Below are positions 2,682-54,195 of a stretch of 64,000 nucleotides of DNA, in pieces. Source of the stretch: an uncultured Candidatus Saccharibacteria bacterium. Its GTDB lineage: Bacteria > Patescibacteriota > Minisyncoccia > Phycocordibacterales > UBA12088. Each line of letters begins with the position of its first letter. Positions within the stretch are counted from its first letter, which is position 1. The notes beneath the pieces are model-generated. The model saw only the letters and a program-made list of their open reading frames with translations. It did not search any database and had not been told where the DNA came from. A program made the position numbers and the translations under genes. The DNA lies in NCBI GenBank assembly GCA_964635195.1, contig CAZWNC010000001.1, positions 1,312-65,311 on the forward strand, in the 5' to 3' direction.

Positions 2682-3902
2682 ATGAGAACGAACATAAAAA
2701 AATTGCGTGACGACTTCCCGATATTTCATACGAAGCCGGACTGGGCGTACCTTGACACTGCGGCAACCGCGCAGGTGCCGCAAGTGGTCATTGATGCGGT
2801 GGCGGAGTTTCAGTGTGCATACCGTTCATCGATACATCGCGGCTTGTACCGCGAGGCGTTACGTGCGACCGAGGTGTATGAACAAGCGCGTGGCACTGTG
2901 GCGAGCTTTCTCAATGCTGAAAGTGCTGAAGAGGTGGTGTTCACATACGGCGCAACATCTTCCTCGAACATGCTCATTGCCATGCTTGAGCATAGTGGGC
3001 TTTTTACAGAAGGGGACGAACTGGTGACAACGGTCACTGAGCATCATTCGTCACTTGTGCCGCAAAGTATGCTGGCGCAACGTCTCGGACTTACCATGTC
3101 GTGTATACCCATGAAGCATTCTCTCCTCCTCGATTATGAATACGCGCGATCCGTTATCACACAAAGGACTAAACTGGTCTCAGTCATGCTCGCGAGCAAC
3201 GTGACCGGTACTATTCACAACGTTCGTCGCATCGCTCGTATGGCACATGCGGTGGGTGCGCTTGTCGCGTGTGATGCGACTGCGGCAGCCGGACACTTGT
3301 CCATTGATGTGCGTGCGCTCGAAGTGGACTTTCTGTACTTTTCAGGACATAAAATGGGTAGCCCGATGGGAATCGGTGCACTGTATGGTAAGCGTGAACT
3401 GTTGCGCGACCTTGAGCCGGGTTGGTATGGGGGCGGTATGGTGGAAGAGGTGGCCTGTACCGGCGCTCGGTGGACGGATGGGCCACAGCGTTTTGAGGCG
3501 GGTACGCCCAATATAGCGGGTGCGATAGGCCTTGCGACCGCCGTGCGATATCTTGCCGAACACAACATGGTTGCCATACGTCAGTACATCGAAGCGTTGC
3601 TTGCGCGCGCGGTAGAAGAGCTCCGAGGGATTGACGGGGTGCAGTTGTTTACGGCGGCACCACATCTGAACGTTGGGATTGTGTCTTTTGTGGTGGAGGG
3701 TGTGCATGCGCACGATCTTGCCGAGATTGCCGCTCGTGAAGGGGTTGCCCTACGGGCTGGGCATCATTGCGCAATGCCGCTCCATGAAGCCTTGGGGGTG
3801 TCGGCGACGGTTCGCGCAAGCTTCTTTCTGTACAACACGAAGCACGACGTCGATGCGCTGGTGGCCGCGGTGAAAAAAGCGAAGCGTATCTTTGAAGCAT
3901 GA
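2682..3902 (+). CDS. sufS: Cysteine desulfurase SufS (class V aminotransferase)
   Basis: 406 aa. N-terminus ...DFPIF...AYLDTAATAQVPQ..., SGHKMGSPMGIGALYGKRELL PLP-lysine region, C-terminal HHCAMPL motif. suf context. Confidence 0.85.
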   Translation: MRTNIKKLRDDFPIFHTKPDWAYLDTAATAQVPQVVIDAVAEFQCAYRSSIHRGLYREALRATEVYEQARGTVASFLNAESAEEVVFTYGATSSSNMLIAMLEHSGLFTEGDELVTTVTEHHSSLVPQSMLAQRLGLTMSCIPMKHSLLLDYEYARSVITQRTKLVSVMLASNVTGTIHNVRRIARMAHAVGALVACDATAAAGHLSIDVRALEVDFLYFSGHKMGSPMGIGALYGKRELLRDLEPGWYGGGMVEEVACTGARWTDGPQRFEAGTPNIAGAIGLATAVRYLAEHNMVAIRQYIEALLARAVEELRGIDGVQLFTAAPHLNVGIVSFVVEGVHAHDLAEIAAREGVALRAGHHCAMPLHEALGVSATVRASFFLYNTKHDVDALVAAVKKAKRIFEA

Positions 3903-7001: not shown

Positions 7002-7361
7002 ATGGCAACAACCACCGCAGCACGACAAAAGACGAAGACCGCACCCGCGATCGAAGGTGGAAAACTCCGCATTCGTATTCGCGCGTACGAGCACAAGATT
7101 CTTGATGCGAGCATCAAGCAAATCATGGATACCGCGCTTCGCTATGATGCGAAGGTGGTGGGTCCGGTGCCGTTGCCCACGGAGATCAAGAAATATACGG
7201 TCAACCGCGCGGCATTCGTGCACAAGGACGCGCGAGAACAGTTCGAAATGCGGGTCCATAAACGGCTGATCGACATTCTCAACCCGAGCGGGAAGGTGAT
7301 CGAGGCTCTTACGAACCTCTCTCTTCCAAGTGGAGTGAACATTGACGTGAAGATGGGTTGA
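7002..7361 (+). CDS. rpsJ: 30S ribosomal protein S10
   Basis: LRIRIRAYEHKILDASIKQI...HKDAREQFEMRVHKRLIDI matches S10 over its full length. Confidence 0.9.
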   Translation: MATTTAARQKTKTAPAIEGGKLRIRIRAYEHKILDASIKQIMDTALRYDAKVVGPVPLPTEIKKYTVNRAAFVHKDAREQFEMRVHKRLIDILNPSGKVIEALTNLSLPSGVNIDVKMG

Positions 7362-7370
7362 TATTCACCT

Positions 7371-7418
7371 CCCATACACCAAAACGCCCTCATACCCGAG
7401 GGCGTTTTGGTGTATGGG
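7371..7418. repeat. Perfect 21-bp-stem inverted repeat (possible terminator/attenuator) after rpsJ
   Basis: cccatacaccaaaacgccctc / gagggcgttttggtgtatggg with 6-nt loop. No flanking T-run on either strand. Confidence 0.5.
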
Positions 7419-7794
7419 AGAGACCGCAAAAATAAAGCATACCTGGTTACTGTCTACCGTCGGTCGCTTGACGAAACTGGTGTCAACAATGAAATCATAA
7501 CAACCAACCTATCATTGCATACTAAAAAAGACCCTCAGTTCCTTTTTCTATCTTTCTAGCAACATTTCGGCAGTACCGGCACTTTGGATTTAGACTAGTT
7601 TTTCTAGCGAGCTTGTAATTTGGAAACAAAAGTGCCCTCGTGATAAAAATGGAGTGCTTTTGTCTTGGGGTGTCCATATGCGTCTTGCATATAATATACT
7701 GATATGCTGTGAAGTGCGGGTACCGTTTTGGTACCATGCCGTTTAAGGGAATGAGTAGCGTACGGTGTCATATTAGGTGAGTTGATGCGAAGAT

Positions 7795-7822
7795 TTGCAT
7801 ATTCATCCAAATGTGCTATAAT
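7795..7822 (+). promoter_or_regulatory. Strong sigma70-like promoter (TTGCAT-16nt-TGcTATAAT)
   Basis: -35 TTGCAT 7795-7800, extended -10 TGCTATAAT 7814-7822, 16-nt spacer. Located in a 600-bp non-coding AT-rich region. Confidence 0.5.
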
Positions 7823-7828
7823 ACAGAG

Positions 7829-7921
7829 GTGAGTGCTAGAGTGCAAAACTCTGCATAACGAAGAACTGCGTAAATCCCCCCTTGTGGGGGCTTTACGTAT
7901 TCACCTTACGCATACTTTTTG
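7829..7921 (+). ncRNA. Candidate small RNA (about 90 nt) with two hairpins and terminal T-run
   Basis: Downstream of the promoter above. Hairpins agagtgcaaaactct and cgtaaa-tcccccc-ttgt-gggggg-c-tttacg. TTTTT at 7916-7920. No ORF. Confidence 0.3.
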
Positions 7922-8043
7922 CCACCAGTGCTTACTGTGATATACTTTACTTGCTTGCTCCTCGAGTGGAGCGCCGCGGCACTCACAAATTAGTTTTTCG
8001 TGGAGCTCGCACCGGCGTTCCATTCGAGGTACAAACGTGACTC

Positions 8044-9108
8044 ATGCGCTTACTCGAAAACGTTTCCCTCGCGGAACTCACAACGCTACGCCTTGGAGGT
8101 GTGGCGCGTTTTTATGTGTCTGTGTACTCGATAGCCGATTTGCGAGAAGCGGTTCATTTTGCACAGCTGAAGCATTTGCCAGTGTGGATACTTGGAGGTG
8201 GCTCCAACACACTCTTTACCGAAGAGGGTTGGCCTGGCCTCGTCATTCGTATTGCGATCTTAGGCACGGAATACAAAGAGGATACAAAGGGTGATGCCCG
8301 GGTTGTGGCGGGTGCGGGCGAGCGGTGGGATACGCTCGTGCAAGATACTGTTTCGCAAGGATTCTGGGGATTGGAGAATCTATCATATGTGCCGGGAAGC
8401 GTGGGTGCGACACCCGTTCAAAATGTTGGATGCTACGGAGTATCGGTTAGTGACTGTATTGACTGGGTTGAGGTGTACGATTGTCGTGATGATGCGCTGC
8501 ACATATTATCTCCAAATTCTTGTGCGTTTGGGTATCGTGACAGTATTTTTAAACATCCGGAAGGTGCTTCCTACATAGTCACTCGCGTTGCATATCGCAT
8601 GAAAACTCGCAGAGCCCCTGTTCTCGAGTACAAAGAACTGGCTGAGCGTTTTGTGGCAAAACCTCCTGAGAGTCCTGCAGAAGTTCGCGACGCTCTTCGC
8701 GAGATACGTGGGAGAAAATTTCCAGATTTGACACGAGTCGGTACCGCCGGTTCATTTTTCAAGAACCCAATCGTACGCAAATCGTCTGTGAAGGATATCG
8801 AGCAGTGGCTTAAATGTTCGGTGCCACAGTATCCTGTTGATGATGAACGTGTCAAGATACCGCTCGCATGGTTACTTGAGGTCTTGGGTTGGAAGGGAAA
8901 GCGGGTCGGATCTGTCGGTACATGGGATGCACATGCATTGGTGTTGGTGCATTACGGCGGGGGAACTGCGTCAGATCTTTTGGCGTTCATTGAGAGTATT
9001 GCAGGTGATGTAAAACGTCGCACGACGATTCGTATCGAGCCGGAAGTGTGTATAGCACGCGTTTCTGAAGTGCAGAGCCGCCTTGAATCGACGTCGAATC
9101 ATGCGTAA
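8044..9108 (+). CDS. murB: UDP-N-acetylenolpyruvoylglucosamine reductase MurB
   Basis: FAD-binding N-domain (LRLGG..., LGGGSNTLF). 354 aa, typical MurB length. Confidence 0.85.
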   Translation: MRLLENVSLAELTTLRLGGVARFYVSVYSIADLREAVHFAQLKHLPVWILGGGSNTLFTEEGWPGLVIRIAILGTEYKEDTKGDARVVAGAGERWDTLVQDTVSQGFWGLENLSYVPGSVGATPVQNVGCYGVSVSDCIDWVEVYDCRDDALHILSPNSCAFGYRDSIFKHPEGASYIVTRVAYRMKTRRAPVLEYKELAERFVAKPPESPAEVRDALREIRGRKFPDLTRVGTAGSFFKNPIVRKSSVKDIEQWLKCSVPQYPVDDERVKIPLAWLLEVLGWKGKRVGSVGTWDAHALVLVHYGGGTASDLLAFIESIAGDVKRRTTIRIEPEVCIARVSEVQSRLESTSNHA

Positions 9109-9271
9109 TGCTGAGTGATGTATCGACGTCGAAACGTAAGATGGATAAAAAAATAAAGTATCGACGTCGATACGACTTATCCACACTCGATATACCCTCC
9201 ACACATTGTATCGAGTGTATGTTTGCATGATAATGATAGTACGTTAACGACGAAATCTTGGTCGACGTCGT
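9088..9271. promoter_or_regulatory. Cluster of four copies of palindromic motif (A)TCGACGTCGA(T) spanning murB 3' end to histone-like gene start
   Basis: Perfect 10-mers at 9088-9097, 9123-9132 and 9161-9170. A 9/10 copy at 9262-9271. Spacings about 35-40 bp. Confidence 0.5.
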
Positions 9272-9300: not shown

Positions 9301-9435
9301 ATGCCAGCAAAGAAAAAGGCGGTAAAGAAGGTTGCAGCTAAGAAGCCTGTAGCAAAAAAGGTTGCAAAGAAAGTAGTAAAGAAGGTTGCAGCCAAGAAGC
9401 CCGCAGCAAAAAAAGTTGCAGCTAAGAAGAAGTAG
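9301..9435 (+). CDS. Lysine-rich histone H1/Hc1-like DNA-binding protein (AKK/KKV repeats)
   Basis: MPAKKKAVKKVAAKKPVAKKVAKKVVKKVAAKKPAAKKVAAKKK. The track ORF starts at 9223 but the basic repeat region starts at ATG 9301. Terminator follows. Confidence 0.6.
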   Translation: MPAKKKAVKKVAAKKPVAKKVAKKVVKKVAAKKPAAKKVAAKKK

Positions 9436-52608: not shown

Positions 52609-54195
52609 ATGGAAGGTATGCGCATCTCTTATTGGTACATACTCGGACTCCTTGCTCTTGTTGGTGTTGTAGGTGTCGCGTGGTTTGAGATGCGGCAGGT
52701 TGGTACTGTGCCCGCGTTTGAAGTTGCGCGTGTCGAACAGAGTGATCTCGAATATATTGTCAGTGTCACAGGTCGGGCAGAGCCGCTACAGCGCCTGTCA
52801 CTTGCGTTTCCGGTTGGAGGCAGGATTGAGCGTATAGCGGTTAAGGAGGGTGACCTGATCACACAAGGCGCACTTGTGGCTCGACTTGAAGGCTCATACA
52901 TGGAAGCGCAGTTGCTCGAGTCGGAAGCGCGTGTTGCGCGTGAGCGCACGTTTTATGAAGAACTTATTGCTCCGATACGAAGTGAGTCGGTTCGACTTGA
53001 AGATGTGAAGGTTGTTCAGGCCAGGGAAGCGCTTGCCCGTGCCGAAGACACTGCCCGTACCGCTCTCGCACGAGCGTACGTCCAAGTTGAAGATGCACTT
53101 CATAGACAAATAGATACGTTGTTTGAGCAAGCACCGGAGAACGGATTTTTCGGCATTGAATACACCACAGCTAATGCGACGTACCGTATTCGGGGTGACT
53201 ATCGTGAGACCATGCTGTTGAATGATTTGCGTGCCGATGCGGAACGGGCGATTGTCGGCATGCGTGACCGTATGGACGATTCCATACCGGTGTCCAAACT
53301 CCTTGTGCTCTCCAGTACCGATCTCCTTGCTGTTGAGCGCCTAAGTACGGAACTCGCTCGAGTGGTCAACGGTTATAGTGCAGATGATATTTACGAAGAA
53401 GCTGCGTACGCGCCTTTTCAGAACGCAGTTCAGCAAGCGCGTACCACCATAGCACAAGTGCGGGGCGACATTGATTCTGTTGCAAGTGCGTATGACGGAC
53501 ATACGCACGCACTCAATCGCGTCATACAAGAGCGCGATCTTGCGTTTGCGGGCGTACGGAGCGAAACGGTGCGCACGCAGCAGGCGGCGATTGCACTTGC
53601 CGAACGCGGGTACGCAAGTGCGCGGGCTAAGCTTGAGGAAAACAATCTTGTGTCTCCGGTCTCCGGTCGTGTCGTTCGGATTGAGCCTTTGGAGGGTGAA
53701 ACAGTACATGCGTACGATGAAGTGCTTGCGGTTGAGGTCGATGCCGGTTCATACGAGGTGCAGGTGTATATGCCCGAAGTAGATATAGCGCGCGTGAGTC
53801 TGGGCGATCGGGCGTCCATCACGTTCGATGCGTTTGGTCGCGAGTATGTTTTTGGTGGTAAGGTCGTACGTATCGCGCTTGCGGAGACCGTTCGTGAAGG
53901 GGTGCCGACTTACAAAACAACAATCGCCGTTACCGATACGCCGGATGCAACATTGCTCGTGCGCCCGGGTATGACCGCAGATGTCGATATCACTACGGAC
54001 GAACGTCCGCACGTCCTCACAGTTCCGACGCGCAGCATTCTTGCACGGGGTGAGCAAAAGTACGTCCGCCTCGTTGAGGGCGCGCAATTCACAGAGCGCC
54101 CTGTGACAGTTGGTTTACGTGGTTCACAAGGCACGACCGAAATCGTCGAAGGTCTTGCAGAAGGTGATGAAGTTGTGGTGTATATGAAAGAATAG
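52609..54195 (+). CDS. HlyD/MacA-family periplasmic adaptor (membrane fusion protein)
   Basis: N-terminal TM anchor, long coiled-coil, C-terminal beta-barrel/lipoyl-like region. Upstream of ABC ATPase and permease. Confidence 0.7.
   Translation: MEGMRISYWYILGLLALVGVVGVAWFEMRQVGTVPAFEVARVEQSDLEYIVSVTGRAEPLQRLSLAFPVGGRIERIAVKEGDLITQGALVARLEGSYMEAQLLESEARVARERTFYEELIAPIRSESVRLEDVKVVQAREALARAEDTARTALARAYVQVEDALHRQIDTLFEQAPENGFFGIEYTTANATYRIRGDYRETMLLNDLRADAERAIVGMRDRMDDSIPVSKLLVLSSTDLLAVERLSTELARVVNGYSADDIYEEAAYAPFQNAVQQARTTIAQVRGDIDSVASAYDGHTHALNRVIQERDLAFAGVRSETVRTQQAAIALAERGYASARAKLEENNLVSPVSGRVVRIEPLEGETVHAYDEVLAVEVDAGSYEVQVYMPEVDIARVSLGDRASITFDAFGREYVFGGKVVRIALAETVREGVPTYKTTIAVTDTPDATLLVRPGMTADVDITTDERPHVLTVPTRSILARGEQKYVRLVEGAQFTERPVTVGLRGSQGTTEIVEGLAEGDEVVVYMKE

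Follow-up and report, generated by a model that had tools for sequence, protein, structure and literature searches.

A predicted pair of conserved small RNA genes upstream of murB in Paceibacterota

Introduction

Several well-studied bacterial RNA pairs recognise each other through two short helices, with an apical loop serving as the landing site for the complementary strand; OxyS-fhlA, CopA/CopT and RNAI/RNAII all work in this way. In another arrangement, the paired small RNAs (sRNAs) GlmY and GlmZ act on the mRNA leader of glmS, which encodes an early envelope-precursor enzyme, via RapZ and RNase E. RNA genes can also drive a protein gene placed behind them, as in E. coli, where ygfA is co-transcribed behind 6S RNA. 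In the cyanobacterial sRNA Yfr1, hairpins flank a conserved single-stranded motif. Here we describe a locus that shares features with these systems, located directly upstream of murB in a 64,000-nucleotide stretch of DNA (hereafter the window) from an uncultured Candidatus Saccharibacteria bacterium (assembly GCA_964635195.1, contig CAZWNC010000001.1, positions 1,312 to 65,311 of the forward strand). An initial annotation, made from the letters alone, had flagged positions 7795-7921 as a promoter-driven structured small RNA candidate. We find that this stretch very probably contains a genuine sRNA gene, which we call unit A, and that it is followed by a second predicted RNA, unit B, which here forms the 5' leader of murB and offers two sites for A in its loop.

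The comparison with the systems above is one of partial likeness. A and B resemble OxyS-fhlA, CopA/CopT and RNAI/RNAII in their predicted two-helix, loop-linear recognition. However, those systems are cis-antisense plasmid RNAs or enterobacterial Hfq-dependent sRNAs, whereas A and B are encoded on chromosomes, either in tandem or apart, and their conservation spans a phylum. Like GlmY/GlmZ, they would be two RNAs that act as a pair and involve the mRNA leader of an early envelope-precursor enzyme, but they lack the mutual homology of GlmY and GlmZ. The latter also act through RapZ and RNase E, while no adaptor protein is known for A and B. B and murB are also arranged like 6S RNA and ygfA, with an RNA gene under a strong promoter directly upstream of a promoterless protein gene, although B lacks the central bubble of 6S RNA and is not matched by the Rfam 6S models.

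A described sRNA with a similar target is PmaR of Agrobacterium tumefaciens, which binds the murB 5' untranslated region (UTR) and stabilises the murB transcript (PMC6234868). As proposed for A, PmaR is a trans-encoded sRNA directed at the murB 5' UTR, providing post-transcriptional control of peptidoglycan precursor synthesis. We draw the analogy at the level of function only, and any PmaR model in Rfam gave no score in the window; PmaR has a CCCA motif in a loop and many targets, and is not encoded beside murB (PMC6234868). Its target also differs from B in not being a conserved, independently promoted hairpin RNA. Yfr1 is reported to be a short sRNA that is conserved phylogenetically and has been linked to the regulation of the cell wall (PMC6974561). 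It differs from A in belonging to another phylum, having another sequence and using one seed rather than two, and it is not known to have a dedicated partner RNA as a neighbour. Searching the literature by topic and by sequence strings gave nothing relevant to A or B beyond these two analogues.

Unit A is a conserved RNA family

All features described here lie on the plus strand unless stated otherwise. Unit A is preceded by a promoter (P1) with a -35 hexamer TTGCAT at 7795-7800 and, after a 16-nucleotide (nt) spacer, an extended -10 element TGcTATAAT at 7814-7822. The near-consensus promoter reported in the initial annotation is thus present as claimed, and it scores 10/12 plus the TG extension in a consensus scan. 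The same scan found four promoter-like sites between 6900 and 8500, compared to 1.6 +/- 1.2 in shuffled sequences. The -35 hexamer is kept in two close relatives (loci L001 and L132, described below), and the extended -10 across relatives more generally.

The 98 nt at 7828-7925 fold at -35.8 kcal/mol, compared to -21.3 +/- 3.4 kcal/mol for dinucleotide shuffles (z = -4.3; 0/200 shuffles were as good). A covariance model matches 7829-7903 with 56 bits (E = 1.4e-9), and within this match we distinguish four parts. The 5' tail GUGAGUGCU (seg1, 7829-7837) has a single-stranded core, GUGAGUG, while its last 2-3 nt lie within the first hairpin. Hairpin 1 (7835-7854), supported by folding and covariation, consists of GC(U)AGAGU / ACUCUGC with the loop GCAAA, and its core is AGAGU/ACUCU. 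The linker ACGAAGAACUG (seg2, 7858-7868) joins the two hairpins. Finally, hairpin 2 (7869-7897), also found by folding and covariation, is a terminator-type stem, CGUAAAUCCCCC / GGGGGCUUUACG, laid out as CGUAAA-U-CCCCC-CUUGU-GGGGG-C-UUUACG.

The two stable hairpins of the initial annotation are therefore real features of the fold, but the C6/G6 core it gave to the second is actually C6/G5 with one U.C mismatch; in L132 this mismatch is a U-A pair. Similarly, the T5 run taken as the end of the RNA exists (7916-7920), but it lies 18 nt past hairpin 2 and overlaps the -35 region of the next promoter. We predict that transcription starts at G7829 and that the functional 3' end is probably around 7898-7903 rather than 7921, with a predicted length of about 70-75 nt. 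A U run directly follows hairpin 2 in most relatives, whereas in the window and L132 none directly adjoins it and the U run is 18-30 nt away. The segment had also been described as free of open reading frames (ORFs). Strictly speaking this does not hold, as mechanical ORFs of 35 and 52 amino acids overlap it, but their frames are not kept in relatives.

To place these features among relatives, we collected loci in two ways. A search with the MurB protein of the window returned L001, a Candidatus Paceibacterota metagenome-assembled genome (84% identity), and many metagenomic homologues. We examined the locus contexts of homologues with 92-46% identity (L002-L011 and L132-L134), including L132 at 92%, L010 at 51%, L133 at 50% and L134 at 46%. 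A metagenome scan with a pattern for the ends of the B loop added at least 120 loci, of which six were chance matches inside unrelated ORFs and served as controls. A covariance model (R1), built from 40 A sequences, matches 84/100 and 21/27 related Paceibacterota sources (105/127 altogether), nearly always once per locus, and has no match in the six control loci. In the window, both A and B are single-copy.

The structure of A is well supported by sequence variation among these relatives. In an alignment of 87 sequences, 91.6% of the cells at paired positions can pair, compared to 73% after shuffling (0/500 shuffles were as good), and 16/17 pairs have changed on both sides; slid controls pair at 40-49%. 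All four model pairs of hairpin 1 are double-changed (for example GCCAC/GUGGC, GUCAC/GUGAC and GCUAG/CUAGC), as are 12/13 pairs of hairpin 2, where 93.7% of the cells are paired. Covariation in homologous intergenic regions, a check that the initial annotation had proposed, is hence found for both hairpins.

The upstream sequences tell a similar story. Across 83 distinct regions upstream of A, TTG occurs at -34 to -32, TG at -15/-14 and TAtaaT at -12 to -7, at fixed distances. Conservation is absent from -6 to -1 and sets in abruptly at the predicted +1, where identity from position 0 is 93-99%, or 80-99% when all of positions 0-8 are counted. Fixed promoter elements combined with an onset of conservation at +1 are what one expects of an RNA that begins with G7829. 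In close relatives, the unit consistently comprises the promoter, the 5' sequence GUGAGUGCC, hairpin 1, a linker with ACGAAAAACU or a variant of it, and a GC-rich hairpin that in most cases is followed by a U run. The promoter logo, the onset of conservation, the single-copy covariance-model matches and the covarying hairpins together bear out the original description of a promoter-driven structured small RNA, and we are highly confident that the flagged stretch is a real sRNA gene, of a family widespread in Paceibacterota.

Unit B and the murB leader

About 50 nt downstream of A lies a second promoter, P2 (TTGCCA-16-TGaTATACT; 7919-7946, with the extended -10 at 7938-7946), which also scores 10/12 plus TG. 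It precedes both unit B and murB. Neither this promoter nor the B hairpin featured in the initial annotation. The extended -10 recurs in 84/114 distinct regions upstream of B, with a peak 36-38 nt before the loop, and in the window the P2 -10 (T7941) is 36 nt before the loop. This spacing predicts that transcription of B begins at the stem base.

Unit B (7960-8029) is a 17-bp hairpin in which 7960-7976 pairs with 8013-8029, enclosing a 36-nt loop (7977-8012). The start codon of murB (8044-9108; UDP-N-acetylenolpyruvoylglucosamine reductase) follows 14 nt past the stem, too close for murB to have a separate promoter. In the window, B forms the 5' leader of murB. In 117 sequences, 94% of the cells in the 20 stem pairs are paired, compared to 69% after shuffling, and 18/20 pairs are double-changed. 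The 60-nt core of B is also very well conserved, with 98% nucleotide identity between genomes whose MurB proteins are 84% identical. All close relatives fetched carry both A and B, and in these B consists of the second promoter, a hairpin of 17-22 bp and a loop of about 37 nt, with murB directly next.

The B loop contains three parts, of which the first two, GGCACUCAC (seg1', 7978-7986) and UAGUUUUUCGU (seg2', 7991-8001), are complementary to A. The 3' part, GGAGCUCGCAC (8002-8012), is highly conserved but has no partner in A. Because the metagenome scan required set sequences at the ends of this loop, the invariance of GGAGCUCGCACC is imposed in the loci it returned. However, GGAGCUCGCAC is identical in eight of ten loci found independently via MurB, and it varies in the most distant ones, to GGAGCUGGCC in L011 and GGAGCCAGCAC in L133. 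Tentatively, these variants point to a helix of 3 bp that closes the inner loop (CGG/UCG, UUG/UGG, UUG/CAG) and is represented by three sequence types only.

Among the matches listed, B is directly followed by murB in about 36 of about 126 loci, while in about 56 it is followed by a U run, making it a stand-alone hairpin RNA of about 100 nt. The remaining copies precede secA or other genes. The names of the SecA proteins place stand-alone B in Kaiserbacteria and related Paceibacterota. The viral contigs scanned for B gave no match. Three of the more distant loci show other arrangements. In L134, the Wzy_C gene and murB are only 9 nt apart (2492-2501), with neither A nor B between them; L133 has a divergent B (2400-2480; loop UUGCACUCACAUAAGACAUUUGUUUUGGAGCCAGCAC) and no A within 2.5 kb; and in L010, B directly follows the upstream gene (1940-2047), with no A within 2 kb. 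Judging from these arrangements, the predicted system is widespread in Paceibacterota but neither universal nor always clustered.

Eight loci (L112, at 3227-3362, as well as L019, L025, L031, L056, L102, L106 and L123) have an additional structured module of about 135 nt directly 3' of B. It opens with GGUGCGAGCUCCAAAGU, which is the reverse complement of the B loop's 3' portion, continues with GGGGGUCGGGGAAAC-UGUA-GUUUCCCCGUGGAGGA and the hairpin UUAAGAACCGnnGGUUCUUAA, and ends in a direct duplicate of the 3' half of B. L106 seemingly contains several copies, and Rfam has no match for the module. It looks like an inserted or mobile RNA module with the B gene as its target.

The conservation of B has also affected protein annotation. 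Over-extended MurB gene models read the B block in all three frames (as ERRGTHK, GAPRHSH or WSAAALTK), which shows that the constraint is on the nucleotide sequence and not on a peptide. We therefore rejected the possibility of a leader peptide or an N-terminal extension of MurB at 7966-8025, as all three frames are used and a TGA precedes murB in the window. This TGA (8038-8040) is in frame and splits the pseudo-ORF of B from the murB ATG, while in L001 the frame runs on uninterrupted into murB, explaining why some gene callers fuse the two. The public MurB models P0002, P0004, P0018, P0027, P0037, P0055 and P0057 are all extended N-terminally through B. Such models are a recurrent annotation artefact, caused by a stop-free RNA block.

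We also considered whether the B stem might sequester the murB Shine-Dalgarno sequence. A Shine-Dalgarno-like motif is found in the base of the B stem in some lineages only (GGGGAG, 4-5 nt before the ATG), and in the window, GAGG is 14 nt from the murB ATG. Sequestration hence holds in some lineages but not in general, and we did not adopt it as a mechanism.

Predicted pairing between A and B

The 5' tail of A is the reverse complement of seg1' in the B loop, with a seed formed by 7829-7835 and 7980-7986 (helix 1). The A linker is in turn the reverse complement of seg2', forming 11 bp including one G.U (helix 2). In the window, the duplex energies of these two segments are -14.0 and -10.9 kcal/mol, respectively. 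As joint folding of the RNAcofold type cannot represent pairs between a loop and a tail, we used duplex and opening energies instead. When we searched both strands of the entire 64-kb window, the B loop was the best two-seed target of A (-27.8 kcal/mol, z of about -5.9).

Compensatory changes in helix 2 are already visible in the MurB-derived loci, which include the combinations ACGAAAAACU/AGUUUUUCGU, AAGAAAAACU/AGUUUUUCUU and, in a Taylorbacteria genome, AAUGUCU/AGACAUU. Overall, the seg2/seg2' classes include GAAAGUC/GACUUUC, GAAAAUC/GAUUUUC and GAAAAACU/AGUUUUUC, besides the Taylorbacteria type. There are 48 distinct duplex classes, many of them separated by compensatory changes. Duplexes between cognate linkers and loops average -10.4 kcal/mol, compared to -7.6 kcal/mol for non-cognate combinations, and 0/10000 permutations were as good. 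In 81 cognate pairs, the two central variable positions of helix 2 are occupied by G-C (57), A-U (23) and G.U (1), and by U-A (66), A-U (14) and U.G (1), leaving no unpaired cells. The covariation score between A and B is 0.172 vs 0.110, a value that none of 500 shuffles reached, and pairing in slid controls is 35-45%.

Helix 1 is paired in 98% of the cells of the same 81 cognate pairs. Here, the changes are mostly from C-G to U.G or from G-C to G.U or A-U, and C-G is replaced by U.G in 19 + 11 cells. This is variation that tolerates wobble pairs and is specific to one strand, which fits RNA transcribed from these strands but not DNA sites. In L011, which was found independently via MurB, helix 1 is shifted but kept. 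Considering both helices, A probably pairs with the B loop, and on the complementarity and covariation we hold this with good confidence.

The arrangement of the two units varies. In 80 of the 96 loci with both, A is on the same strand as B, typically 90-300 nt upstream. In the other 16, A is on the opposite strand. There are also loci in which it lies downstream of B or up to several kilobases from it; L123 and L126 are examples of such separate placement. Since A can be distant or inverted and B has its own promoter, the two predicted RNAs are separate genes.

Known RNA families

The initial annotation had suggested a scan for known families, and none claims the segment (6S, signal recognition particle (SRP) RNA, transfer-messenger RNA (tmRNA), RNase P and riboswitches included). 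Assignment to a known family, which that annotation had named as a refutation, thus does not refute the sRNA. At gathering thresholds, Rfam 15 finds only two tRNAs in the whole window, both elsewhere, and nothing at A or B in 23 further loci (13 + 10). In E-value mode, 7300-8100 of the window and 2900-3420 of L112 give only chance matches of hairpins to miRNAs. ARAGORN also finds nothing at either unit. A match of the Rfam RNAI model to unit A of L112 scores 22 bits, far from the gathering score of 47, and is due to chance.

Two resemblances were considered and rejected. GAAAGUC is similar to CR-I of RNase P, and B is reminiscent of 4.5S RNA, being a hairpin of about 100 nt near secA. However, the complementary segments are crossing rather than nested, B has neither the helix-8 motif nor a GGAA loop, and no model scores. 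We found no canonical SRP RNA on the same contigs among the examined loci, so co-occurrence cannot be used to exclude SRP. Rfam, ARAGORN and our literature searches all gave no match. We file A as a new family within the trans-acting base-pairing sRNAs, with an unusually well-defined and conserved partner.

Function of the pair

The explanation that we favour, with somewhat better than even confidence, is that A is a trans-acting base-pairing sRNA with B as its dedicated partner, and that here it most likely regulates murB post-transcriptionally. A would be transcribed from its own sigma-70-type promoter at G7829 and would end at or shortly after the 7869-7897 hairpin, with GUGAGUG of the 5' tail and ACGAAGAACUG of the linker left exposed. 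Both stretches would then pair with two neighbouring sites in the apical loop of the separately promoted B, in this case the 5'-terminal stem-loop of the murB mRNA. Pairing would alter the processing, stability or translation of the B-led murB transcript. It is because B is the leader of murB here that we consider murB the most likely object of regulation. Expression of the two RNAs, their pairing in vivo and an altered murB output upon pairing are all inferred from sequence, and the effect of pairing on murB expression in particular is a tentative proposal, falling a little short of probable.

Several points weigh against this explanation. Opening each RNA costs about 10.7 kcal/mol, which reduces the net binding of A to B to about -3.5 kcal/mol; this is favourable but modest. 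The next best site for A in the window (52926-52975, minus strand) is only about 2 kcal/mol weaker than the B loop, at -25.9 kcal/mol. As the scan pattern fixed seg1', helix 1 varies on the A side only in most loci, which is partly an effect of ascertainment. The sequences are also phylogenetically related, and hence the shuffle counts given above are not probabilities. The expression of A and the ends of the RNA are predictions, and in the window and L132, where no U run adjoins hairpin 2, read-through from P1 into B is possible. Finally, B is not specific to murB, so A may serve B itself, and we cannot propose an effect on the ribosome-binding site of murB that would hold for all lineages.

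Alternative explanations

In the main rival explanation, A and B make up a single bipartite stable RNA, possibly part of a ribonucleoprotein or a catalytic or scaffold RNA specific to Paceibacterota. The helices would then be architectural rather than regulatory, and murB (or secA) merely co-transcribed behind B. It deserves this place because B can stand alone and because both RNAs contain stretches whose conservation exceeds the needs of pairing. B keeps its promoter and terminator and persists where murB is not downstream, and the 5' GUGAGUG of A and the 3' part GGAGCUCGCAC of the B loop are both more conserved than pairing needs. In addition, both genes are single-copy and syntenic in Kaiserbacteria-, Taylorbacteria- and Pacebacteria-type genomes. 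However, no Rfam family (SRP, 6S, tmRNA, RNase P or others) and no ARAGORN prediction matches such an RNA, and there is no evident gene for an associated protein. It also seems odd for an essential housekeeping RNA that L134 has no room for A or B and that L133 and L010 have no A nearby, although A could be elsewhere in these genomes. Overall, we find this explanation unlikely.

A more specific version is a phylum-wide bipartite RNA in which A completes the B loop and leaves UUUGGAGCUCGCAC exposed for a third partner, serving a housekeeping or catalytic function linked to the envelope. We consider this more doubtful still. The link to envelope biogenesis comes from the conserved neighbourhood, with the shared order Wzy_C/TPR gene - A - B - murB - Lys-rich ORF - secA. 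If A and B do form a bipartite RNA, the 135-nt modules that are complementary to the exposed stretch would be elements that exploit it.

Alternatively, B could act as a sponge or decoy for A, or A for B, with the real targets of A being other mRNAs with sites similar to GACUUUC/CACUCAC and the link to murB incidental. Stand-alone copies of B with terminators are indeed common, and the runner-up site in the window comes close to B in score. That site is antisense to a coding gene (ORF 52609-54195), though, and is probably a chance match, and no other conserved target was found in the examined loci. Furthermore, if the seed of A had to match many other targets as well, the covariation of seg2 between A and B could hardly persist across lineages. 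A sponge thus appears improbable.

Yet another possibility is that 7829-8043 is a single cis-acting leader of murB transcribed from P1, where the A hairpin acts as an attenuator and A and B form a long-range pseudoknot, similar to a riboswitch. The lack of an adjoining U run in the window and L132 would fit, as would the adjacency of A and B on the same strand in 80/96 loci and the stability of the whole region (z = -6.4). On the other hand, most relatives have a U run after the A hairpin, B has its own conserved extended -10 promoter, and L010 and L133 keep P2 and B without an A immediately upstream. Two candidate pairings would close such a leader: a GGUGA/UCACC stem, and a helix between CUUACUG within P2 and the 5' end of A. 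Both are confined to the window or L001, are not conserved in L132 and others, and were rejected. The 16 loci with an opposite-strand A, and those in which A lies downstream of B or at kilobase distance, exclude a purely cis-acting leader as a general model, and we find this explanation very improbable.

That there is no functional RNA at all is hardly credible; complementary blocks are also inverted repeats in DNA and the region does have two promoters, but protein-binding sites, promoter elements or chance hairpins in an AT-rich spacer are excluded by compensatory changes in three helices and two intermolecular helices, and sit poorly with the strand-specific, G.U-compatible variation, conservation that starts at +1 and not upstream of it, a fold z-score of -4.3 and a covariance model without matches in control loci.

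Genomic context

The gap between rpsJ and murB spans 7362-8043. The initial annotation described it as an AT-rich gap of about 600 bp, and the composition agrees (GC content 0.39-0.45, compared to about 0.5-0.6 in the flanks), while the size is 682 bp. Pfam supports the identities of S10, MurB, EF-Tu and SecA among the proteins of the window.

Homology between the window, L001 and L132 begins exactly at the -35 hexamer of P1 and extends to murB, while the genes further upstream differ. The predicted RNA element hence goes with murB and its leader rather than with rpsJ. In these relatives, a Wzy_C/TPR gene is found upstream of A, in some cases together with a small AbrB-like gene. The 370 nt at 7430-7795 have no counterpart in L001 or L132 and are thus lineage-specific, which, together with the different upstream genes, suggests that a lineage-specific rearrangement placed tuf-rpsJ beside the A-B-murB block. 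At the 3' end of rpsJ there is a hairpin of about 25 bp (7364-7424), and rplC does not come next.

On the other side of murB, the window has a DnaA box (TTATCCACA, 9177-9185), followed by a TGCAATAAT-type promoter with a conserved leader and a tiny Lys-rich ORF (9301-9435, 44 amino acids, no Pfam match) just upstream of secA. The same layout is repeated in L019, L031, L056, L069, L112 and L123.

Conclusion

Paceibacterota and the rest of the Candidate Phyla Radiation (CPR) are, as far as is known, uncultivated, ultra-small bacteria with genomes of about 1 Mb and few recognisable regulators. In the literature, we found no described regulatory RNA from Paceibacterota or other CPR bacteria. The locus described here contains a phylum-conserved pair of predicted small RNA genes ahead of an essential peptidoglycan gene, with secA nearby. 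The two RNA families are ready for use in covariance-model annotation of genomes, where they also correct the recurrent extension of MurB gene models through the B hairpin. If A does act on murB through B, as we tentatively propose, the pair would offer a concrete entry into the post-transcriptional control of envelope synthesis in Paceibacterota.

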